A DNA stretch of 28,323 nucleotides from Poseidonia sp. (GTDB taxonomy: Archaea > Thermoplasmatota > Poseidoniia > Poseidoniales > Poseidoniaceae), in assembly GCA_034402455.1 (NCBI GenBank), contig DASCRS010000036.1, forward strand, positions 1 through 28,323, in the 5' to 3' direction. The translations under genes and the position numbers were made by a program. Below, in pieces: positions 5,211-14,693 of the stretch. Below the pieces are notes generated by a model. It had not been told where the DNA came from, made no database searches, and saw nothing but the letters and a program-made list of their open reading frames with translations. Within the stretch, counting starts at the first letter, position 1. Each line of letters begins with the position of its first letter.

Positions 5211-5870
5211 CTAAGGGCTTCGTCTTCGGATTTCATCTGAGAAGAAATTCATGACTTTGCTTTCAACACGCTGAATTTGCGCTGAAAGTGTAGATTTGGA
5301 AACACCCAAAAGTTCAGCAAGTGTGGTGAGGGTGATCTTTCTTTGAGGGTCGTAAAATCCCTCTCTAATCGCAATATCATAGACTTGACGTTGTCGTTCT
5401 GTCAACAACCGGCTCGAGGTGCTTCGAGTGGACACTAATCGGTGTGGAATATTTTCGTGCTTAAATTCTTCAATGAGTTTTCTCATTTTGTGTCTATCGC
5501 ATTCAATCACCCAATCAACCCATCCATCACGAATTTCAAATGGGGTTCTTGGAATGACGTGCAATTGCAACAAAGGTTTGAGGAAACCCCCTCCTCCAGC
5601 ATTAATAGTTACATGATAGCGATTGCTTTCAACCATTTCAAAGTCTGCTACTCCAAGGTGAGTCATGATGGTGGTCGACAAATCTTCGGTTGAAGAAATG
5701 ATACCTGATCCTTGACCTTTGGCCAAGGCCATGTGTTCGTCTATTCGAATAATAGAAGAAGGATGGCTTCTGGAAACATCGCCAGCCCAATGTCCGTTGG
5801 GTAAACGTACTTCAATTCTCATTTGGTGCGTTGTTTTGTTCTCTTCTCGTGGTTGTGACTTTATCGCCAT
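5211..5870 (-). CDS. HTH_10 (bacterio-opsin activator Bat / DmsR / NarO-type HTH) transcriptional regulator
   Basis: C-terminal LTERQRQVYDIAIREGFYDPQRKITLTTLAELLGVSKSTLSAQIQRVESKV is the HTH_10 signature. Confidence 0.9.
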   Translation of the reverse strand: MAIKSQPREENKTTHQMRIEVRLPNGHWAGDVSRSHPSSIIRIDEHMALAKGQGSGIISSTEDLSTTIMTHLGVADFEMVESNRYHVTINAGGGGFLKPLLQLHVIPRTPFEIRDGWVDWVIECDRHKMRKLIEEFKHENIPHRLVSTRSTSSRLLTERQRQVYDIAIREGFYDPQRKITLTTLAELLGVSKSTLSAQIQRVESKVMNFFSDEIRRRSP

Positions 5871-5933: not shown

Positions 5934-5975
5934 ATAAATAGCATTTGGGCGAACATCTCTTTACGAACATGTTCG
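5934..5975 (-). promoter_or_regulatory. Promoter of the HTH_10 gene: TATA-like element plus two CGAACAT boxes, one a perfect palindrome
   Basis: CGAACATCT at 5950-5958 and the 14-bp palindrome ACGAACATGTTCGT at 5963-5976. The minus strand reads CTATTTAT at 5941-5934. Confidence 0.75.
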
Positions 5976-5984
5976 TGCTGCTCA

Positions 5985-6599
5985 TTAGTCATCCATTGAT
6001 GAGTTCATTTGTTCCATGGTGATGATGAAAATAGCCGCAAAACCTACTCCCAAAAGGATGGTTGCGATCTCTCCTGAAGTGAATCCATCCGGTCCATCAA
6101 CAATAACCGCCTTTTTTGATGTGGTTATGCTTGTCGTGTCTTTCGTCCAGTGGTCACCACTTCCAGCTATACCATCGCCATTCACAGCATTACCGTATGT
6201 TGTGAAGGTTACAACAGTACCTTTGGAAGGTGCGTTCCATTGAACCGTCCAAGTCCGCTCATCGTTTCCTTCAGAGGTATGTGTTGCCTCTCCATCAAGT
6301 ATTTGCGTGAATATGTCCATTGAACCAAGGGTTCCAGTTGAAGCCCGAAGATTGAATCCTCCAGTGTTCAATCCGCTCGATTCTGGACCAGTGAGATTCA
6401 CATAAACAGTGTATGATTCACCGTGAGTCCAATTGAGGGGAACGCCTTCCACTGTCAGAGCAGCCTCATCTGAAATAGCGCCATCTCCATGACATGTACA
6501 TCCTGAATTAACACCATTTATTCCACTACTATAGCCGTTTGATAGGGGTGCTATGAATATCAATAGAAATGCGCAACTTACTCCAATGAGGTACCTCAT
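5985..6599 (-). CDS. Secreted, C-terminally membrane-anchored choice-of-anchor V / Reeler-like protein with a CxCH motif
   Basis: Signal peptide, SGCTCHG, GGFNL, THT, WTVQWNAP, GNAVNGDG and a C-terminal TM helix. Clearly paralogous to the Cox1 N-terminal domain. Confidence 0.8.
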   Translation of the reverse strand: MRYLIGVSCAFLLIFIAPLSNGYSSGINGVNSGCTCHGDGAISDEAALTVEGVPLNWTHGESYTVYVNLTGPESSGLNTGGFNLRASTGTLGSMDIFTQILDGEATHTSEGNDERTWTVQWNAPSKGTVVTFTTYGNAVNGDGIAGSGDHWTKDTTSITTSKKAVIVDGPDGFTSGEIATILLGVGFAAIFIITMEQMNSSMDD

Positions 6600-6636
6600 G
6601 GTGGTGCCTTAACCTTCTATATCACAAAGGTTAGAA

Positions 6637-6656
6637 CGAACATGTAAGCCCAACAT
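6637..6656 (-). promoter_or_regulatory. CGAACATGT-N7-ACAT box upstream of the CxCH protein
   Basis: CGAACATGT at 6637-6645, 38 bp from the ATG at 6599. Second ACAT at 6653-6656. Confidence 0.75.
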
Positions 6657-6668
6657 CTCAGATGCCTT

Positions 6669-7226
6669 TTATCGCAAAAATGGGTATTGCTCAACAATTC
6701 GAATACGACTCCACCACGAACCGAGCCCCCATGTGTCTCCACAGCGCATGTTCGCCATGCCAAGGCAGAGGATGGCATAGATTAGGTGATGATCGAAAAA
6801 AGGATTGTGTTCCTGTGGTATCGCAGATAACCAAATCATGAACAACATGAATGCACCAGAATAACCGCCAATCTGTGTACCCATTCCTGTGATGAATGCT
6901 AAGCCTACCATAAGTAGGCCAATCATGAAAAGCCATTCAACAGTAACACTGGTAGAAAGGCTTTGGAACCAATCTGCAAAAGGCCCTTGAGTGCTGTATT
7001 TGAGAAAACCTTGGGTTGGGTGACCACCGTTCACCCAGGCCTCCTCGCATCCAAATTTAGCTGATCCACCAACATTGCATGTAGAATCCCCTAGGCCAAA
7101 CGTTCGGTCCAAAAATGGCCATAAAAATACACAGCCCATTGCAATTCGAATCAGTGACCAATATCGCTCTTGAAGGAAATTAAACATGGTTGTTTCCTGT
7201 TCCGATTCTGCTTGAATTGGCGACAT
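6669..7226 (-). CDS. DoxX / DoxD-like membrane protein
   Basis: LIRIAMGCVFLWPFLDRTFGLG, WVNGGHPTQGFL, EWLFMIGLLMVGLA, HNPFFDHH and GDTWGLG. Start at 7226 has GGAG 7 nt upstream. Alternative start at 7187. Confidence 0.8.
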   Translation of the reverse strand: MSPIQAESEQETTMFNFLQERYWSLIRIAMGCVFLWPFLDRTFGLGDSTCNVGGSAKFGCEEAWVNGGHPTQGFLKYSTQGPFADWFQSLSTSVTVEWLFMIGLLMVGLAFITGMGTQIGGYSGAFMLFMIWLSAIPQEHNPFFDHHLIYAILCLGMANMRCGDTWGLGSWWSRIRIVEQYPFLR

Positions 7227-7275
7227 TAGGCATCTCCATATGGCGCATATGGAGGATATGTAGAGTATCCTACGC

Positions 7276-7295
7276 CGAACATGTCCCACTTACAT
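7276..7295 (-). promoter_or_regulatory. CGAACATGT-N7-ACAT box upstream of the DoxX gene
   Basis: CGAACATGTCCCACTTACA matches the 14675 site at 18 of 19 positions. It overlaps only a spurious ORF extension. Confidence 0.75.
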
Positions 7296-7311
7296 CAGTT
7301 TCGTAGACATT

Positions 7312-7842
7312 CTAACTACCCTCTGACATATTCCCCGCAGTTGCACCTGCCTTGGGTTGAACAGAAAAAACACCGCTCTCAGTATTGGAGGTTTTTCCAC
7401 AAAAAATCGCACAGTCAACAATCACTGAACCAGCACCAGGGATGTCAATTTGACACATTCCAGTACTCGAAAAGGCATACTCTCCCGGTGCGGGTGCGGT
7501 AAAGACCACACTGCTAGGGTGAGTCAAATCAAATGAATATGAGAGATTCAAATCAGGTACAGTGAGTGAATCAGCGATGAAGTGCTGTTCGTCGTATTTC
7601 CTAAAATGGAGACGTACACATTCATCTTCCTCAAATTCAATTGATGCGGTTTCAAACGTCATGTCGTAATTGACACAACCGTCATCAATCATCGTTTGAT
7701 CTTTGCACTCCTCCAAGAAGGAGCCCACCTCTTCATCACAAATGCTGGTTGACTCAGTGAACATCAGATTCGATGAAAATGATATCAGAACCATAATGGC
7801 ACAAATCAAATGCCCTTTGGCAATTTTCCAATCATTCTCCAT
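7312..7842 (-). CDS. Membrane-anchored cupredoxin-like protein with a degenerate copper site
   Basis: N-terminal hydrophobic helix, then SLTVPDLNLSYSF..VVFTAPAPGEYAFSSTGMC, a cupredoxin-type core lacking the usual first Cys, His and Met. Start overlaps the nirK stop (7842, or 7848). Confidence 0.65.
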   Translation of the reverse strand: MENDWKIAKGHLICAIMVLISFSSNLMFTESTSICDEEVGSFLEECKDQTMIDDGCVNYDMTFETASIEFEEDECVRLHFRKYDEQHFIADSLTVPDLNLSYSFDLTHPSSVVFTAPAPGEYAFSSTGMCQIDIPGAGSVIVDCAIFCGKTSNTESGVFSVQPKAGATAGNMSEGS

Positions 7843-9253
7843 CTTCATCGTAAACGGTGGTGTTTTCCGCACCAGTCACAGAAATAATGCCTATGGCTCC
7901 TTTGTGGAAGGCACGTGTAAGGGCGTGGTCAACCAAGATGTAGTTCGCAGGAACTTCAAAGACAAGGTCAACAATAACAGCTCCACCTGGGGCAACTATA
8001 ACGGTTTGAACGCTTTCCAATGGAGCACTTTCGGTGCTTGCTAGATTGTAGGCTCGGTCGAAAATCTCACCAATGACGTGGAATGATGAAATGGTATTTG
8101 GACCTCCAACTCCGAAATAAATCCTCATTGATTCTCCGACATTTGCTTTGATGGTATCATCTCCAGTGAAGGTTGCAAATTTGCCATTGAACACGACGTA
8201 GGTTGGGCGTTCGTCAAAGAGCGCATCAACATCCATTTCTTGATGACCTTCGGTGCCAGGGCGCCATTTTGTGTACAAATCGCCCTGCATGACGTAAATT
8301 TCTTTGTCGACTTCCGGCAGTGGAACTTCGGGTTCAATGTAGATCATTCCGTACATGCCTTTGCTGATGTGAGTTGGGATGTCAGGTGTCGCGCAGTGGT
8401 ACACATAGAGTCCAGAATGCATGGCAAGGAAGGAGAATGATGTCGATTCTCCTGGAGCGGTCGTCGTTGCTTCAGCTCCGCCTCCTTGTCCAGTTACAGC
8501 ATGGAAATCCACGTTGTGATGCATCATGCTTTCAGCACGATTGCTGAAATGAACAATTACAGTATCGTTAATTCGTGCTCGGAACATTGGCCCTGGTACG
8601 GTTGCGTTGTACGTCCAATATGTGAAGGTCGTACCAGGTTCAAGCTCTGCAGTGACCTCAACAGCCTCAAGATAGATGTGAACCGTGGTTGATGTGTTGC
8701 GCCCTGTTGGTCCAGGAATATCGTAAGGGTCCTTGGCGATATTGTCAACATCGACGGTCAATGCTGGGCCGATGTTTTCAATTAGCGTTGTACTTGACTG
8801 CCCAGAACCAACAATGAGCGTTCCGACCATTCCACCAGCACGGTGCCCTGCAATGCTACAAAAGTATGCAAATTGGCCCTGAGTATCAGCAACAAAGGTG
8901 ACAGAATCTTCAGATCCAGATTCAGTCAATTGTTTTGTCGCAACATCATAACCTTCTACGGAAATATCGTGAAGATTCATTTCACCCATTTCCAAGGTTA
9001 TGGTCACACGATCACCGGTTTGTACCGATAGTTCGGGGTTGACCAGGCCGTCGATGGAACCACCAACACCGATGTAGGACATTTCCTTGCCTTTGAGTGT
9101 GAATTCAACGTCATTGTACATGACTACGCATTTACCATCAACCAGCTCTGTATCCTTGCCACAGGTTGTCGTCGTTTCTTCGTCTCCCAAACAGCCAGAG
9201 AACCCAGCAGTTATCATCACAAGTATCATTATCATTACATTTATTTTTCTCAT
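7832..9253 (-). CDS. nirK: Copper-containing nitrite reductase, lipoprotein, with an extra N-terminal type-1 cupredoxin domain
   Basis: HNVDFH, YVYHC..PTH..KGMYG, SSFHVIGEIFD and LVDH give all T1/T2 Cu ligands plus the catalytic Asp and His. The N-domain has LHD..YFCSIAGHRAGGM. Lipobox-like FSGC. GAGGTGG site before the ATG at 9253. Confidence 0.93.
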   Translation of the reverse strand: MRKINVMIMILVMITAGFSGCLGDEETTTTCGKDTELVDGKCVVMYNDVEFTLKGKEMSYIGVGGSIDGLVNPELSVQTGDRVTITLEMGEMNLHDISVEGYDVATKQLTESGSEDSVTFVADTQGQFAYFCSIAGHRAGGMVGTLIVGSGQSSTTLIENIGPALTVDVDNIAKDPYDIPGPTGRNTSTTVHIYLEAVEVTAELEPGTTFTYWTYNATVPGPMFRARINDTVIVHFSNRAESMMHHNVDFHAVTGQGGGAEATTTAPGESTSFSFLAMHSGLYVYHCATPDIPTHISKGMYGMIYIEPEVPLPEVDKEIYVMQGDLYTKWRPGTEGHQEMDVDALFDERPTYVVFNGKFATFTGDDTIKANVGESMRIYFGVGGPNTISSFHVIGEIFDRAYNLASTESAPLESVQTVIVAPGGAVIVDLVFEVPANYILVDHALTRAFHKGAIGIISVTGAENTTVYDEDGE

Positions 9254-9297
9254 CGTAATACCACCTCTAGTGGTTGTTTCGTGGTCTGTGTTGGGTA

Positions 9298-9324
9298 TTA
9301 TAGCCCCGGCCACGAACATATTAG
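9298..9324 (-). promoter_or_regulatory. nirK promoter: CGAACATATTAG box plus TATA-like CTATAA
   Basis: Box at 9313-9324. Minus-strand CTATAA at 9303-9298, the same box-to-TATA spacing as at cox3 and the CBS gene. Confidence 0.7.
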
Positions 9325-9342
9325 GCGGAGGTGTACGATTCC

Positions 9343-11514
9343 TCACTCGCCCTCTTGGGCGAACGGGTGACCAATAGAATGGTCAAAATTATGAGGTGGT
9401 GGAGGGGATGAAACTGTCCATTCAAGGGTTGACCCATTCCATGGGTTTGGCCCTGCGATCTCACCGTGTTTCATACTGCGCCAGAAGTTGTAAAAGAACA
9501 ACAATTGCCCAGCAAAGACCACAAAACCACCAATGGTAGCAATAAGATGAGCGACTTCCCAGCCAGCTGATTCTTGATAGAAATATATTCTTCGGGGCAT
9601 GTCAGTCAGACCAAACAAGGGAATCCATGTGAGGTTAATTCCAATAAATGTAATCCAGAAATGGTACATTCCCAATTTCTGGTCCATCATTCGACCGAAC
9701 ATCTTCGGGTACCAATAGTAAATTCCACCCAAAGTCATGACTGCAACGGCACCCAGCGTATAGTGGAAATGCGCAACTAGATAATAGGAGCCTCTCAAAT
9801 TGACATCCATGGCGACACTTGAGAGGTAGACACCAGTAATACCTCCAACAAGGAAAATACCGATGGCTCCGGTCACGAAGACAAGAGGAAGTTTTTTCCA
9901 ATCTGGCTTTGAGCGATAAAAAGTTGCTAGCAAGGAGAGATAAATCAAACCGAATGGAACGCTAACAAGTTCCGTTCCAATGGTTTCAATTTTCCTGAAT
10001 GTAGGATTGATTCCAGTGATGAACATATGGTGTGCCCATACCAATACCGATATGATTGAGGCAACAACCAAGGAATAAATGATGATTTTTCGTCCGTAAA
10101 GTGAACGACGGACCGTGTTGGGGATAATTTCCATGGCCATTCCCAATCCTGGTAGGAGGACAATGTAGACCTCGGGATGTCCGAAGAACCAGAAAATATG
10201 CAACCACCATGTTGTTCCATCGATGCTTGGGTCAAAGAACATGGTTCCAAAGACTCGGTCACCAACAAGCATGAGCACCGCTGCCATGAGTGCAGGGAAC
10301 ACCGCGAGCATCAAAATGACGGTAAAAAGAATGTTCCATGTGAACATGGGCATCTTCATCAATGGCATTCCAGGTGTTTTCATTTGCAAGATTGTGACAA
10401 GGAAATTGACCGTGCTAAACGTGACAGAAAGAATCAACAAAACCAGCCCAGCACCCGCCAGACTTATTCCAGCACCAGGGCTGTATTCTATGCTCGTCAA
10501 GGGGCTATAGAACGTCCAACCAGCATCCGCAGCGCCACCAAAGAAGAATCCACTTGCGGCAACGAGGCCGCCAAAGAGAATCATCCAAAATGACATTGCA
10601 TTGAGACGTGGGAAGGCCATGTCCTTGGCTCCAATTTGAAGAGGGACAATGTAATTTGCAAAAGCAAAGGACATTGGAGATACGGCGAACAGAACCATAA
10701 CGGCACCGTGCATGGTGACCGCTTCGTTGAACAACCCTCCAGTCATGAAATCATTATCCGGTACGATCAATTGGATTCGGATGAGCAAAGAGAGCGCAAG
10801 TCCGATAATGGTGAACAAGAGTGTGGTCCAAAGGTAGAGCATTCCGATGTCTTTGTGATTGGTCGTTGTCAACCAATGCATGACTGTTTTTTTGTCCACT
10901 GCTGGGTTTCTGACCATAAGTACAACCACTGCTGCAACCAAGCCAAGGATGGTCAAAACAATGAGCCACCAAGCAAGATTTGTGAAATCAATGATTGGTC
11001 CGCCGTCGGAATTTAACCCTTCTACCAAGATTTCTTGGCTTGACCAAAGGTCTCCAGCAGAATTCAAACCGTCTCCGTCAACGGCGTTGCCGAATACTTT
11101 GAACGAAATGTCGTCGGTGTCATCAAGAGGAGCATTCCATTGAACTGTCCACTCTCTTACATCGTTCCCCTCAAGTGTATGAGTCATCTCAATTCCCTTA
11201 TTTGGGCCATCAATCACTCGCGTGTGGTTGTCAAGCGAAACAAATTCGCCCCCATCAGCATGCAGGTTGAATCCACCAGAGTTTGCTCCGCTCGCTTCAG
11301 GACCCCCAGTGATGTTGATGGTGAGTTCGTAGCTTTCGGAGCCGTTGTAAACGTCTGGTAATCCTGTGATGGTTACTGTCACATCGTTGGATGCACTTCC
11401 TCCTCCGTGGCATGTACATCCACTGTCGACATTAGCGATTCCGTTGGAAACACCTTCCATCGTAGGGGCAAATGCAATCAAAACAAGAATTGCCATTGCG
11501 AGTAAACGCTTCAT
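9343..11514 (-). CDS. coxA: Heme-copper oxidase subunit I (A1-like) with a fused N-terminal extracellular CxCH domain
   Basis: TMHG, KDMAFPRLN, GWTFYSPL, WFFGHPEVY, WAHH, AHFHY and MPRR. Signal peptide, about 160-aa domain and an extra TM helix precede the core. ATGA overlap with cox2; GGAGGTGG site upstream. Confidence 0.95.
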   Translation of the reverse strand: MKRLLAMAILVLIAFAPTMEGVSNGIANVDSGCTCHGGGSASNDVTVTITGLPDVYNGSESYELTINITGGPEASGANSGGFNLHADGGEFVSLDNHTRVIDGPNKGIEMTHTLEGNDVREWTVQWNAPLDDTDDISFKVFGNAVDGDGLNSAGDLWSSQEILVEGLNSDGGPIIDFTNLAWWLIVLTILGLVAAVVVLMVRNPAVDKKTVMHWLTTTNHKDIGMLYLWTTLLFTIIGLALSLLIRIQLIVPDNDFMTGGLFNEAVTMHGAVMVLFAVSPMSFAFANYIVPLQIGAKDMAFPRLNAMSFWMILFGGLVAASGFFFGGAADAGWTFYSPLTSIEYSPGAGISLAGAGLVLLILSVTFSTVNFLVTILQMKTPGMPLMKMPMFTWNILFTVILMLAVFPALMAAVLMLVGDRVFGTMFFDPSIDGTTWWLHIFWFFGHPEVYIVLLPGLGMAMEIIPNTVRRSLYGRKIIIYSLVVASIISVLVWAHHMFITGINPTFRKIETIGTELVSVPFGLIYLSLLATFYRSKPDWKKLPLVFVTGAIGIFLVGGITGVYLSSVAMDVNLRGSYYLVAHFHYTLGAVAVMTLGGIYYWYPKMFGRMMDQKLGMYHFWITFIGINLTWIPLFGLTDMPRRIYFYQESAGWEVAHLIATIGGFVVFAGQLLFFYNFWRSMKHGEIAGPNPWNGSTLEWTVSSPPPPHNFDHSIGHPFAQEGE

Positions 11515-12245
11515 TGTGCACCACCTCCAGAATACCATTGGTCAAAATCGGATTTCTCCATAACTTCGAGTTCACCAATCATGACGGCATGGTCTGCCCC
11601 ACACAATTCATAACAACGAATTGGATAAGTTCCCGTTTCTTCAGCCAAAATCCATCCTATGTTTGGACGACTTGGGAGTGCATCAACCTTAATTCGGTGT
11701 TCTGGCAAGGCGAAGGAATGAAACACATCTCCGCCAATGACTTCGAACACGACTGGGGTGTCAACCGGGATTCGTAATGGTTCATCGGTGGCACTGGTGT
11801 AATTGATTCCATTGGGGTATTCGTATTCCCAATAATACTGCCATCCCGTGACTTGCACGGTGAACGATTCCTCCTCAAGTTCTGGTGTCTCAAAAAATTT
11901 GATTGAATCGAAAGTAACTGAAGAAAGGACGAGAAGAAATACAGTAATGATTACTGTAAGGCTCCATGAAAGTTTGACATTTCCTCGTTCAATAGGCATT
12001 TGTCCCAAGAAAGGAGCATCCGAAGGTTCGACTTCCACTTCAGTCGTTACCAACCAAAGGAAGAAACCGTAGACAGTAACGGCTACAATACATCCTAATG
12101 TCCAGTAAATCAAGAAGAGGTTGTCGTATACCTTGGCGTGTTCTCCAGTTCCAGGTTCTTGGAACCATTTGATGATTGAGCCAAAGGTCAGCATAAGAAT
12201 AACAATCGAGAAGAAAATGAGTCCAAATGCCCGTTTATTCTGCAT
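11511..12245 (-). CDS. coxB: Heme-copper oxidase subunit II, CuA type, no cytochrome c domain
   Basis: Two TM helices, GWQYYWEYEY, DVFHSF and CYELCGADHAVM. GGAGGT site and ATGA overlap with cox3. Confidence 0.95.
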   Translation of the reverse strand: MQNKRAFGLIFFSIVILMLTFGSIIKWFQEPGTGEHAKVYDNLFLIYWTLGCIVAVTVYGFFLWLVTTEVEVEPSDAPFLGQMPIERGNVKLSWSLTVIITVFLLVLSSVTFDSIKFFETPELEEESFTVQVTGWQYYWEYEYPNGINYTSATDEPLRIPVDTPVVFEVIGGDVFHSFALPEHRIKVDALPSRPNIGWILAEETGTYPIRCYELCGADHAVMIGELEVMEKSDFDQWYSGGGAQ

Positions 12246-13057
12246 CAGATAACCTCCACATATACAATCAAGAACAGCACCATCCAAACCACATCAACAA
12301 AGTGCCAATACCATACAATGGCTTGGAATGAATCCCTTCTTCCGTTGTCATAGTATCCTTTTTTGTGTAAGAAAGCGACCCCCCCTAAGGCAATGATTCC
12401 AACCAATACATGGAGTCCATGCAATCCTGTTAAGGCAAAGAAAGCGGTGCCATAAGGATGGTCTTTCCATGTGAACCCTGTATGCATATATTCATACAAT
12501 TGAATAGCCAAAAAGAGAGCACCAAAAGCGATGGTAATGTACAGATTCTTTCGAGAACGAACCAGTGAACCCCGGTCATGGGCGTGAAGAGAAAGGTGGG
12601 CTATGATTCCCGAAGAAAGCAATAATGCAGTGTTGAACATCACCAGCATCATGTTGTGGTGAATCTCTGCTGGTGGCCATGAAGATGAGGCGATTGCTCC
12701 ATCCCAAGAAACAGTGTGCCATTTCGCCCAAAACCAAAATGCAAAGAATCCCGCAAAAACAATGACTTCTGTGAGGATAATCCATACCATTGCCCACGAA
12801 GCATGGCCCATTTTGTGGGTTGAAATCTCACGAAATTGCCAGAGATCAACATCTTCTCTAACCCAAGAGAATATCGACCACACCAACATTGGAATTGCAA
12901 GGAAAGCGATGGGCCATATGAGTAAAGAAGCAAGTGTTAAGGTTACTGAAAGTGAAAAGATTAGAGGTACCAAACTGGAATGAACTTCTCCAGGTTCTCC
13001 GTGAGCATCCATGTTGATTTTCCAAAGCGATTCATTCGGTAAGTGTTCACCATCCAT
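12245..13057 (-). CDS. coxC: Heme-copper oxidase subunit III
   Basis: LTEVIVFAGFF, WPP, NTALLLSSG, FFALTGLHGLHV and YWHFVDVVW. Start 13057 is supported by promoter geometry. Confidence 0.93.
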   Translation of the reverse strand: MDGEHLPNESLWKINMDAHGEPGEVHSSLVPLIFSLSVTLTLASLLIWPIAFLAIPMLVWSIFSWVREDVDLWQFREISTHKMGHASWAMVWIILTEVIVFAGFFAFWFWAKWHTVSWDGAIASSSWPPAEIHHNMMLVMFNTALLLSSGIIAHLSLHAHDRGSLVRSRKNLYITIAFGALFLAIQLYEYMHTGFTWKDHPYGTAFFALTGLHGLHVLVGIIALGGVAFLHKKGYYDNGRRDSFQAIVWYWHFVDVVWMVLFLIVYVEVI

Positions 13058-13079
13058 GGATATTCCAGGGGAGAGAAGA

Positions 13080-13115
13080 ATATACATTGTAACACGAACA
13101 TGTAGGGGGGACATG
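13080..13115 (-). promoter_or_regulatory. cox operon promoter: CGAACATGT-N7-ACATG box plus TATA-like GTATAT
   Basis: Box at 13095-13103, 38 bp from the ATG at 13057. Second ACATG at 13111-13115. Minus-strand GTATAT at 13085-13080. Confidence 0.75.
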
Positions 13116-13143
13116 CCTTACCAGTGTTGGAGTTCCAAGATTC

Positions 13144-13737
13144 ATGAGGGCTGATACTTCAATTGTACTAAGCCTCTTGATTTTAGGAGCATTTCTTTCG
13201 CTTTCCCCACTAATCTTATTTGGCGACTCAGAGCAATTGAATACGGTCACACGAGACGATTTATCCGTTGAACAAATTTCATCATTAAACAATGGGACCT
13301 TCGCTAAAAGTCTCAAAGATAATGATGCCATCATCATTACATCGGCGATTATTGTCAAAGATTCCTTGTTCATCGCAGGTGAATTTTCTGGAGAAATTAC
13401 CATTGGAAATCAATCCTATCTCAGCCAAGGATCTTCGGATCTAATCATGGCAAGGCTTGCACCAAATGGAACATGGATTTGGGTTGAGGTTCTTGGGGGA
13501 GCTGGTAATGACCGTGACGTAACATTTGAGTACAAAAATGAACAATTATTCGTAAAGGGCTCAATTTTTGGTGAAATCAATACTACATCGGGTTATACGG
13601 TAGGCAGTGGAGAAAAAAATGGCCATGAAAGGATTATTGGAGAAATTTCAGTTGAAAACGGTACCTGGAAGTTGCTTACAGTTGACCCGTTTGGAGACCT
13701 AAGTGCGAACCCCTCTCTATGGTGCGGATGGCGATGA
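13144..13737 (+). CDS. Hypothetical membrane-anchored or secreted beta-rich protein
   Basis: N-terminal TM or signal helix. IAGEFSGEITIG..DLIMARLAPNGTWIWVEVLGGAGND resembles archaeal surface beta-propeller repeats. Confidence 0.7.
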   Translation: MRADTSIVLSLLILGAFLSLSPLILFGDSEQLNTVTRDDLSVEQISSLNNGTFAKSLKDNDAIIITSAIIVKDSLFIAGEFSGEITIGNQSYLSQGSSDLIMARLAPNGTWIWVEVLGGAGNDRDVTFEYKNEQLFVKGSIFGEINTTSGYTVGSGEKNGHERIIGEISVENGTWKLLTVDPFGDLSANPSLWCGWR

Positions 13738-13744
13738 TGGGCCC

Positions 13745-14167
13745 TTAGATGTGATCTAGAAGAGCCTCATTGTGAACGAAAGACCATCCATATGCATGGA
13801 AGTCCTTTTTGTCAATTTCTTCAATTTCGCAGCCAAGATGCGACCAAATCAATTCGATGTCGCCTCTTACTTCCATTCGATAAGAGATAATGTCCATCCA
13901 TTTTTTCTTTTGTGTAGTGTCCATCAGCAATATAACTCCGAGGTCTTCGTTAATCTCTTCAAGGGTTGAATGGATTGTTTTTCCTTTGATTTTCAATCCA
14001 TTCTTTGCTGGATCAACGATGAAATATTCCCAATTATCTTTCTCCAATTTTGTGATGATTGACAACCAAGAGTGGTGGTCAATGTTTGAATCGCCAAGAA
14101 GGGCAATTTGCTTCAAACTACGAGCATATTCAATGATCTCATTCGGAAGAAGGTGTTGGTGGGCCAT
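13745..14167 (-). CDS. Divergent CoA-binding (YccU-like) Rossmann domain protein
   Basis: IALLGDS, FIVDP, KGKTIHSTLEEI, IWSHLG and FVHN follow the YccU pattern loosely. Confidence 0.55.
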   Translation of the reverse strand: MAHQHLLPNEIIEYARSLKQIALLGDSNIDHHSWLSIITKLEKDNWEYFIVDPAKNGLKIKGKTIHSTLEEINEDLGVILLMDTTQKKKWMDIISYRMEVRGDIELIWSHLGCEIEEIDKKDFHAYGWSFVHNEALLDHI

Positions 14168-14217
14168 GAGGAGCGATTCTCTTTAGGAGCCTTGTATTTT
14201 TCACGAATATGTCCGTC

Positions 14218-14637
14218 TTATGGGAAATTTTTGTTTTGATTCATGTGCTCAAGAACCGATTGCAATGTGACCAAGCCCAGAATATTTCCATCTTGAATTA
14301 CTGGCAGGCGCTTTACATTGAATGCAGACATCTGCAAGTAGGCGTCATCAATCGTACACAGAGGCCCAATATGATGCAACGCTCTCAGATTAAATGAATA
14401 CAAGGGTCGTTTCCAAAAAGCCTTGATTTGAACCTCACGTTCTTCTTGTAAACGAAGCATTTCTGTTGAAGTGATTATGCTCCACGGACGATTATCTTGG
14501 TCCAAAATTACAAGAGTGCAAGTTCCAAGCTTGCCGATATAATCAGCGGCATCCAAGAAACATACATCAGATGTGATTAGAGGGGGGGAGCATGACATAA
14601 ACTCCCCAACCGTCAATTTATTGCTCAACCTTGGCAT
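14218..14637 (-). CDS. CBS-pair protein
   Basis: VGEFMS..PP, ..WSIITSTEML and AYLQMSAFNVKRLPVIQDGNILGLVTLQSVL form two CBS motifs. Confidence 0.85.
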   Translation of the reverse strand: MPRLSNKLTVGEFMSCSPPLITSDVCFLDAADYIGKLGTCTLVILDQDNRPWSIITSTEMLRLQEEREVQIKAFWKRPLYSFNLRALHHIGPLCTIDDAYLQMSAFNVKRLPVIQDGNILGLVTLQSVLEHMNQNKNFP

Positions 14638-14659
14638 GGCGTGTGAAATTAAACCTAAG

Positions 14660-14693
14660 ATATAGACTTGAAAGCGAACATGTCCAACTTACA
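14660..14693 (-). promoter_or_regulatory. CBS gene promoter: CGAACATGT-N7-ACA box plus TATA-like CTATAT
   Basis: Box at 14675-14683, 38 bp from the ATG at 14637. Minus-strand CTATAT at 14665-14660. Confidence 0.75.

Follow-up and report, generated by a model that had tools for sequence, protein, structure and literature searches.

Within a 28,323-nucleotide stretch of DNA from the archaeon Poseidonia sp. (assembly GCA_034402455.1, contig DASCRS010000036.1, positions 1 to 28,323; hereafter the window), the operon coxIII-coxII-coxI encodes a heme-copper oxidase (HCO) without the lysine that defines the canonical K-channel. Judged from its sequence, we read this enzyme, at a probability of roughly 0.78, as an O2-reducing A1-type oxidase with electron entry through CuA, belonging to an 'Aeropyrum-type' pan-archaeal clade whose K-pathway appears to have been rebuilt or bypassed. 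O2 reduction is the best reading: active site and D-pathway show full conservation, O2 turnover is known from a relative, and orthologues in other archaea are found in ordinary complex IV operons. An earlier note, made from the nucleotide letters, had described an A1-type oxidase with an intact D-channel and catalytic Tyr and an 'apparently deleted K-channel', acceptable wording as far as the canonical residues are concerned. The window is a contig (C36) of a 1.1 Mb genome, 55% complete, whose closest named relatives are the Thalassarchaeaceae and Poseidoniaceae (Marine Group II archaea). The genes and residues on which the argument turns are as follows.

12245..13114, minus strand: coxIII, subunit III, a separate gene leading the operon (PF00510, E=6.7e-32).
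11511..12287, minus strand: coxII, subunit II (P0002; TIGR02866 CoxB, 152.5 bits, over the cut-off).
9343..11538, minus strand: coxI, subunit I (P0001, 731 aa; PF00115, E=1.6e-125 over residues 230-673).
9919..9984, minus strand: helix VIII of CoxI (residues 519-540), where T522=T352, E523=353, S526=356, F529=T359, G530=360, I532=K362 and Y533=363.
9970..9972, minus strand: E523, the sole helix VIII carboxylate (position 353), from the clade comparison.
10132..10134, minus strand: M469, the S299 position, followed by E470, from alignment columns.
11973..11975, minus strand: Lys105 of CoxII, the site of the K-channel entry Glu (Rhodobacter sphaeroides E101, Paracoccus denitrificans E78), from HMMER against 1m56_B and MAFFT.

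Residue equivalences, given in R. sphaeroides numbering, were taken from phmmer alignments to solved CtaD/CoxI chains together with MAFFT columns. CoxI matched the solved actinobacterial CtaD chain 8hcr_F at E=2.5e-130 (phmmer), and its sequence identity to solved oxidases settles the fold. In the phmmer alignments LVSVPFGLIYLS of the window pairs with LIAVPTGIKFFN, which places F529 (codon 9952-9954) at T359 and I532 (codon 9943-9945) at K362. The substitutions T359F and K362I had been proposed from a manual alignment, and both, with their codon coordinates, are exact; the proviso that a proper alignment might bring back Lys or Thr did not come to pass, and F529 and I532 stand. Replacement of S299 by Met at 10132-10134 was likewise confirmed by alignment, and the new Glu and Tyr that the earlier note had seen in helix VIII are E523 and Y533. 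The Pereira/Sousa definition of the A-type calls for both a D- and a K-channel; of these the canonical K-channel is lacking, its sites being taken by I532, F529 and M469 of CoxI and by K105 of CoxII.

The remainder of the catalytic machinery is that of an O2 reductase. All six His ligands are present (H277, H454, H503, H504, H590 and H592), and the motif GHPEVY at CoxI residues 453-458 supplies both E456 (E286) and Y458 (Y288, the cross-linked Tyr). The D-channel is complete (D306=D132, N295=N121, N313=N139, S371=S200 and N378=N207), and the equivalents of W280 and R481/R482 are likewise present in the window CoxI. Every subunit I residue that had been reported as retained (D132, N121, N139, E286, Y288 and the His ligands) was found where it had been placed. 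With the COX1 fold, six His, the HPEVY Tyr, E286 and D-channel all in place, the enzyme belongs to the A family of the HCO superfamily in the phylogenetic sense. TIGR02891 (CtaD_CoxA), an NCBIfam equivalog, was the best-scoring model, though at 552.9 bits the protein fell below its cut-off of 670.75.

Subunit II has lost its part of the K-pathway as well. The CoxII register was set in two ways that agree, by HMMER against the R. sphaeroides chain 1m56_B and by MAFFT applied to 24 CoxII sequences. The entry Glu (E101) is indeed absent, as had been claimed; its site is Lys105 (11973-11975), however, and not Ser107 (11967-11969), an assignment rejected by both methods as a register error of two residues. 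Among the CoxII partners of K-less oxidases, Lys or Arg occupied this site in nine of ten and Gly in one, versus Glu in all sampled canonical CoxII partners with an alignable second transmembrane helix. The CuA motif H..C.E.C...H..M is intact in the window CoxII, from residue 190.

These losses extend far beyond one genome. Phe, and never Thr, was found at position 529 of the 121 closest database homologues, and Ile, Met, Val, Ala or Leu, never Lys, at 532; these sequences came from Marine Group II, Thaumarchaeota/Nitrososphaerota, Caldiarchaeum, Bathyarchaeia and a few entries labelled Dehalococcoidia. A search for related loci returned mostly canonical bacterial oxidases, with which the most conserved peptides are shared, and these were used as the outgroup for trees to which 150 representatives at ≤50% identity were added. 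FastTree recovered the clade of the window enzyme with a support of 100, every member being K-less with GHPEVY. In an IQ-TREE analysis (LG+C20, 87 rows), the 30 archaeal K-less rows were set apart from the rest by a branch whose support was 100 in the Shimodaira-Hasegawa-like approximate likelihood ratio test (SH-aLRT). This archaeal A1-type clade spans Marine Group II, Thaumarchaeota, Aigarchaeota, Marsarchaeota and Desulfurococcales, further named members being Hydrothermarchaeota, Sysuiplasma and Nitrososphaerota. Placement by HMM and phylogeny, the check that the earlier note had proposed, thus puts the enzyme in an A1-type clade of the A family, and in neither the B family nor the nitric oxide (NO) reductases (NORs).

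Residue frequencies were compared between 204 clade members and 117 sampled canonical A-family sequences. The K362 lysine was present in all 117 of the latter and in none of the former. Catalytic residues were kept in 203 to 204 of the clade members, E286 and Y288 in all 204, and each of the D-channel residues (D306, N295, N313, N378 and S371) in 197 or more. Helix VIII was identical among orthologues whose overall identity was just 64-86%, and near-identical DNA was found in marine metagenomes of at least seven studies. Given the clade-wide absence of Lys, the conservation of helix VIII and this recurrence in metagenomes, the substitutions are neither chance nor an error. Coordinated loss in two subunits under selection, as the earlier note had put it, is therefore real, the substitutions being invariant across a large clade. 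The impression of a singular, highly surprising enzyme does not survive the comparison, since the pattern defines a pan-archaeal A1 clade whose K-channel has already been tabulated as 'modified'.

The same conservation bears on whether the gene is a decaying or non-functional paralogue in which residue losses are tolerated beside a working oxidase. The window's genome does carry a second, canonical oxidase, and most Poseidoniales do without the K-less copy. Against this stand an unbroken reading frame, 100% conservation of helix VIII in orthologues that are 64-86% identical, catalytic residues that are invariant in 204 sequences, and the location of the Caldiarchaeum and Thaumarchaeota orthologues in ordinary complex IV operons (coxII, coxI+III, coxIV and a cupredoxin gene), the Thaumarchaeota one adjoining CtaA and UbiA-family (CtaB-like) heme synthesis genes. 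The conservation pattern effectively refutes the pseudogene idea, which we reject.

Loss of the lysine is not confined to this clade, nor is it rare in the rest of the A family as sampled; the tree requires at least 11 changes. A large A-family clade of ~840 aa subunit I+III fusions (P0140, P0145, P0148, P0151, P0161 and relatives) has Gln or His at K362, usually Ser at T359 and, in many members, Ser, Thr or Gly at N139, and constitutes another K-channel variant. Two A1-type proteins elsewhere in the tree, from metagenome-assembled genomes of a Deltaproteobacterium (L053) and a Candidatus Binatia (L082), combine T359F with K362I. Several of the proteins sampled (P0019, P0020, P0023, P0330 and others) carry the automatic NCBI name 'cbb3-type cytochrome c oxidase subunit I', a misnomer for what are A-type proteins.

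A member of the clade is known as an isolated enzyme. Aeropyrum pernix is a strict aerobe whose aoxABC A-type enzyme has twice been obtained in isolated form; it is an aa3/oa3 cytochrome c oxidase and showed activity with N,N,N',N'-tetramethyl-p-phenylenediamine (TMPD) or with cytochrome c (PMC3062577, citing Ishikawa 2002). The A. pernix subunit I+III protein (P0330) fell inside the clade, is 49% identical to the window core, and reads PFEMA in helix VIII, that is, T359F, Glu at 360 and K362A. The earlier note had allowed that the sequence might belong to an already characterised subfamily with normal activity, and this is largely so, aoxABC being in the clade and active in turnover assays. 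The K-channel variants of archaeal COX1 were mapped by Degli Esposti et al. (2021), who inferred seven independent losses (PMC8239418). In the supplementary tables of that paper, 'Aeropyrum COX13' and 'Marsarchaeota COX13' are entered as type A1 with a K-channel scored 'no, modified', the tabulated changes being, in P. denitrificans numbering, S291A, K354A/M, T351F and COX2 E78L (PMC8239418).

The window enzyme has the marks of this group, namely HPEVY, T351F, K354A/M/I, S291A (or G/M) and a non-acidic COX2 E78 site, other than the COX1-COX3 fusion, its coxIII being a separate gene at 12245-13114. In R. sphaeroides terms it shares with the A. pernix and Marsarchaeota COX13 proteins HPEVY, T359F, a hydrophobic residue at K362, Ala, Gly or Met at S299 with an acid next to it, loss of the subunit II Glu, an Arg-Gly pair in place of the Mg ligands, and a single carboxylate on helix VIII. 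Unlike them, it has subunit III encoded by a separate upstream gene, an N-terminal choice-of-anchor V domain with an extra transmembrane helix, its carboxylate at 353 (E523) and not at 360, and the position of an accessory, nirK-linked second oxidase. Fusion of coxI and coxIII is not universal in the clade, Marine Group II and some members of 510-560 aa being unfused.

Other known systems are further removed. Canonical A1 aa3 oxidases (R. sphaeroides, P. denitrificans, Mycobacterium CtaD) have in common with the window enzyme the fold, six His, Y288, E286, D-channel, a CuA subunit II and subunit III, whereas the window enzyme lacks K362, T359, S299, E101 of subunit II and the Mg ligands H411 and D412. 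The A-family oxidases of Acidithiobacillus and Acidiferrobacter may also be without a functional K-channel (Degli Esposti 2020/2021). These acidophilic iron-oxidiser enzymes likewise have Ile at K354 (P. denitrificans numbering), a substituted COX2 E78 and a retained D-channel, but they are bacterial, A2 by the evocell classifier and have two extra N-terminal transmembrane helices; they were compared by description. B-family (ba3) enzymes run a K-type pathway without lysine, so that Lys is not chemically required. They lack the D-channel and E286, whereas the window enzyme keeps both and scores only ~1e-15 to ba3 chains. Membership of the B family was rejected on the presence of the D-channel, Phe and Ile at the helix VIII K-analogue sites and that score.

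What distinguishes helix VIII throughout the clade is a single acid. It lies at position 353 in 117 of the 204 members and at 360 in the other 87, with no member having both and none having neither, and no acid was found at either position in any of the 117 canonical enzymes. On a clade tree from which the columns of helix VIII had been left out, the acid switched between 353 and 360 at least six times, and position 462 in helix VI (four residues past the catalytic Tyr) and position 573 in helix IX switched together with it. S526, at the A356 position, was conserved in 202 of the 204 and T522 in 201, and position 470, next to the S299 site, was Glu or Asp in every member. The one-acid pattern looks like a selected functional replacement, with a geometry that we infer from sequence. 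Three K-less A-family proteins outside the archaeal clade (P0234, P0158 and P0176, one of them A2-type with SHPAVY) carry TEL at 352-354, which suggests that Glu353 was gained there convergently.

Across the clade, non-protonatable residues stand in place of the canonical K-pathway residues K362, T359 and S299 of subunit I and E101 of subunit II, and the D-pathway, E286, the cross-linked Tyr and the metal ligands of the active site are invariant. Under the mechanism we propose, the helix VIII carboxylate, acting together with S526, T522 and the invariant E/D470, would form part of a rebuilt route for substrate protons, or serve as a local proton store and compensate charge when heme a3/CuB is reduced; the D-pathway would supply the remaining protons. 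We put forward tentatively, at somewhat less than even odds, that the carboxylate functionally replaces the lysine-based K-pathway. The earlier note had listed an alternative channel among its explanations, and the one-acid rule makes this the option the data favour.

The chief competitor is a true single-channel O2 reductase, in which all chemical and pumped protons would pass through D306/N295/N313 and E456, the mirror image of B-type enzymes with their sole K analogue, and in which the carboxylate would be structural, aiding helix VIII/IX packing or compensating for a lost Mg site. It accords with the invariant D-channel and E286, with the hydrophobic or non-protonatable nature of all four canonical K-pathway positions, with the existence of bacterial K-less lineages without any helix VIII acid, and with helical-wheel arithmetic that puts the acid on the face opposite K362; Degli Esposti raised the same idea for the oxidases of iron oxidisers. 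A purely structural residue less easily explains a one-acid rule that held through at least six changes of position. It is textbook knowledge, too, that in K362 mutants of canonical enzymes reduction of the binuclear centre stalls despite an intact D-channel. We regard a D-channel-only enzyme as possible though rather improbable, and a carboxylate route or proton store is favoured over it by the one-acid rule, as far as sequence can tell.

Several points weigh against the reading that we prefer, of an O2 reductase with a carboxylate in place of the lysine pathway. Positions 353 and 360 lie ~160-180 degrees from K362 by helical-wheel arithmetic; the carboxylate is therefore no simple in-place substitute for K362, and its putative contacts are drawn solely from covariation. 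Other K-less A-family lineages have no such acid (L053, L082, P0149 and P0260), so the carboxylate is not a general requirement for loss of the lysine. Across the A family, loss of Lys and gain of the acid offered ~3 independent contrasts (2-4 informative pairs) and their association was not significant (p ~0.25). Reduction of O2 with normal energetics would be an extrapolation from the turnover assays on the A. pernix enzyme. No metatranscriptome run with the gene was found among the RNA runs listed.

Two further clade-specific features lie outside the K-pathway.

9790..9795, minus strand: R582-G583, replacing the Mg/Mn-site ligands H411-D412, from alignment columns.
9601..9603, minus strand: D646, a clade-specific acid two residues ahead of the R481/R482 pair, from alignment columns.

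At the Mg site, Arg was found in 197 and Gly in all 204 clade members, versus His in 98 and Asp in 92 of the 117 canonical enzymes. The D646 site was Asp or Glu in 194 of the 204 and Gly in 113 of the 117. Both features are close to invariant in the K-less clade and missing from canonical enzymes, and an Arg-Asp pair may replace the metal of the Mg/Mn site.

In the window the K-less operon adjoins genes for copper proteins, and its CoxI carries an added N-terminal domain.

7832..9346, minus strand: nirK, with an N-terminal cupredoxin domain and a start overlapping the coxI stop (TIGR02376, 331 bits against a cut-off of 296).
7312..7872, minus strand: small cupredoxin-like gene downstream of nirK (weak PF13473 match).
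11035..11481, minus strand: choice-of-anchor V domain, extracellular, with a CTCH motif, at the CoxI N-terminus (NF041895, 87 bits against a cut-off of 42).

We surveyed 121 Poseidoniales species genomes for these genes. In 117 of them a canonical oxidase was present (37-44% identity to the query), while the K-less oxidase (≥77% identical) was found in nine, from two families and six genera, and always in company with the canonical one. None of the 15 other genomes of the window's genus carried the K-less oxidase. The window's own genome also encodes a canonical oxidase, reading IPTGAK in helix VIII. Its operon coxII-coxI-coxIII is split over contigs C88 (L003) and C54 (L002), whose ends overlap by 27 residues, and the joined canonical CoxI of 773 aa has T359 and K362 intact.

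NirK was encoded in five of the 121 genomes, four of which carry the K-less oxidase, and nirK adjoined the oxidase in four of seven loci, namely the window and three of the six related loci (L005, L006 and L008). In the NirK-bearing genome without a detected K-less oxidase, nirK lies at G041:C8:644-1588, ~640 bases from a contig end, so that a gap in the assembly, rather than a true absence in the organism, may account for the missing oxidase. The Marine Group II K-less enzyme is a patchy second oxidase, not a housekeeping one, that travels with NirK and cupredoxins. Most plausibly it would be a module fed by copper proteins for low-oxygen, nitrite-containing water, in which NirK and the oxidase may share a cupredoxin donor under common regulation.

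The same linkage raises the question of whether the Marine Group II enzyme is mainly an NO reductase or an NO-tolerant scavenger, forming with NirK a two-step module from nitrite to N2O. Overlap of nirK with the coxI stop, its adjacency in three more loci and the presence of the K-less oxidase in four of the five NirK-bearing genomes would suit such a role, as would the finding of no third HCO or NOR homologue in five genomes of the NirK/K-less type (86-89% complete). NO reduction, moreover, needs just two protons and no cross-linked Tyr (PMC11214002). HCO-derived NORs (cNOR, qNOR, eNOR, sNOR, gNOR and nNOR) resemble the window enzyme in superfamily, in a helix VIII Glu in some of them and in a denitrification gene context. 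They have no cross-linked Tyr, altered active-site ligands and usually no D-channel; every described family has lost the Tyr (PMC11214002), whereas here Y458, the three CuB His, E456 and the D-channel are all present and invariant and the window enzyme retains the full active site of an O2 reductase. Membership of a NOR family was rejected on these grounds and because E523 is absent in 87 of the 204 clade members; since those 87 lack it, E523 cannot be an FeB ligand. The K-less state is also older than, and independent of, the link to NirK, with no nirK in the loci of the Caldiarchaeum and Thaumarchaeota orthologues, and no NirK was seen in five of the nine Poseidoniales genomes that carry the K-less oxidase. 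A common cupredoxin donor may be all that links NirK to the oxidase. We therefore consider an NO-reductase role unlikely. The suggestion in the earlier note of a different reaction, on NO or peroxide, finds no support in the active site: throughout the clade Tyr, the three CuB His and E286 do not vary, and neither does the D-channel. All that speaks for it is the circumstantial NirK linkage in Marine Group II. Its argument that the retained Tyr points to O2 chemistry fared better, Y288 being present in all 204 clade members and missing from HCO-derived NORs.

Gene order and boundaries in the operon offered some further detail. coxIII lies upstream of coxII-coxI in all six Marine Group II loci. 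The coxII open reading frame as listed begins with TTG and overlaps coxIII by 43 bases (window 12243-12287); the true start is probably the ATG at 12245, with a 1-base overlap with the coxIII stop. Database copies of CoxI begin eight codons downstream, at 11514 instead of 11538. The first ~215 residues of CoxI comprise the choice-of-anchor V domain and, after it, one extra transmembrane helix, and the same domain (CxCH motif) and extra helix are also N-terminal on the canonical oxidase of the genome (L003 799-1400). A free-standing choice-of-anchor V paralogue downstream of nirK (window 5985-6599) is kept in related loci. The box CGAACATGT occurs in six exact copies in the 28 kb window, all at 5964-14683, inside the oxidase/NirK cluster, and with one mismatch allowed there are 18 matches in the window versus 7 expected. 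A gene for an HTH_10 regulator lies at 5211-5870.

A 'deleted K-channel' is not in itself new, having already been tabulated for Aeropyrum and Marsarchaeota COX1-3, and the window enzyme is not unique; it is an unfused, domain-extended and NirK-linked member of that variant. Beyond the published table are the one-carboxylate rule, the replacement of the Mg-site ligands and the patchy, NirK-linked second oxidase of Poseidoniales. A more speculative proposal, which we hold doubtful, is that a pan-archaeal A1 branch swapped the lysine K-pathway for a carboxylate device (one Glu or Asp, at 353 or 360, retained through repeated changes of position), a third and so far undescribed means by which heme-copper oxygen reductases would supply substrate protons or balance charge, and that Marine Group II recruited this variant with NirK since it would go on working, or reduce NO, in places where NO formed from nitrite poisons the canonical enzyme. 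The statement that every A-type oxidase needs K362 fails for a large and environmentally abundant archaeal clade, whose enzymes genome papers still label, through a classifier, as 'D- and K-channel possessing A1'. The one-carboxylate rule provides a concrete candidate residue for mutation. Marine Group II archaea are usually treated as plain aerobic heterotrophs; the minority with a module of NirK and a second oxidase points to low-oxygen or nitrite metabolism.

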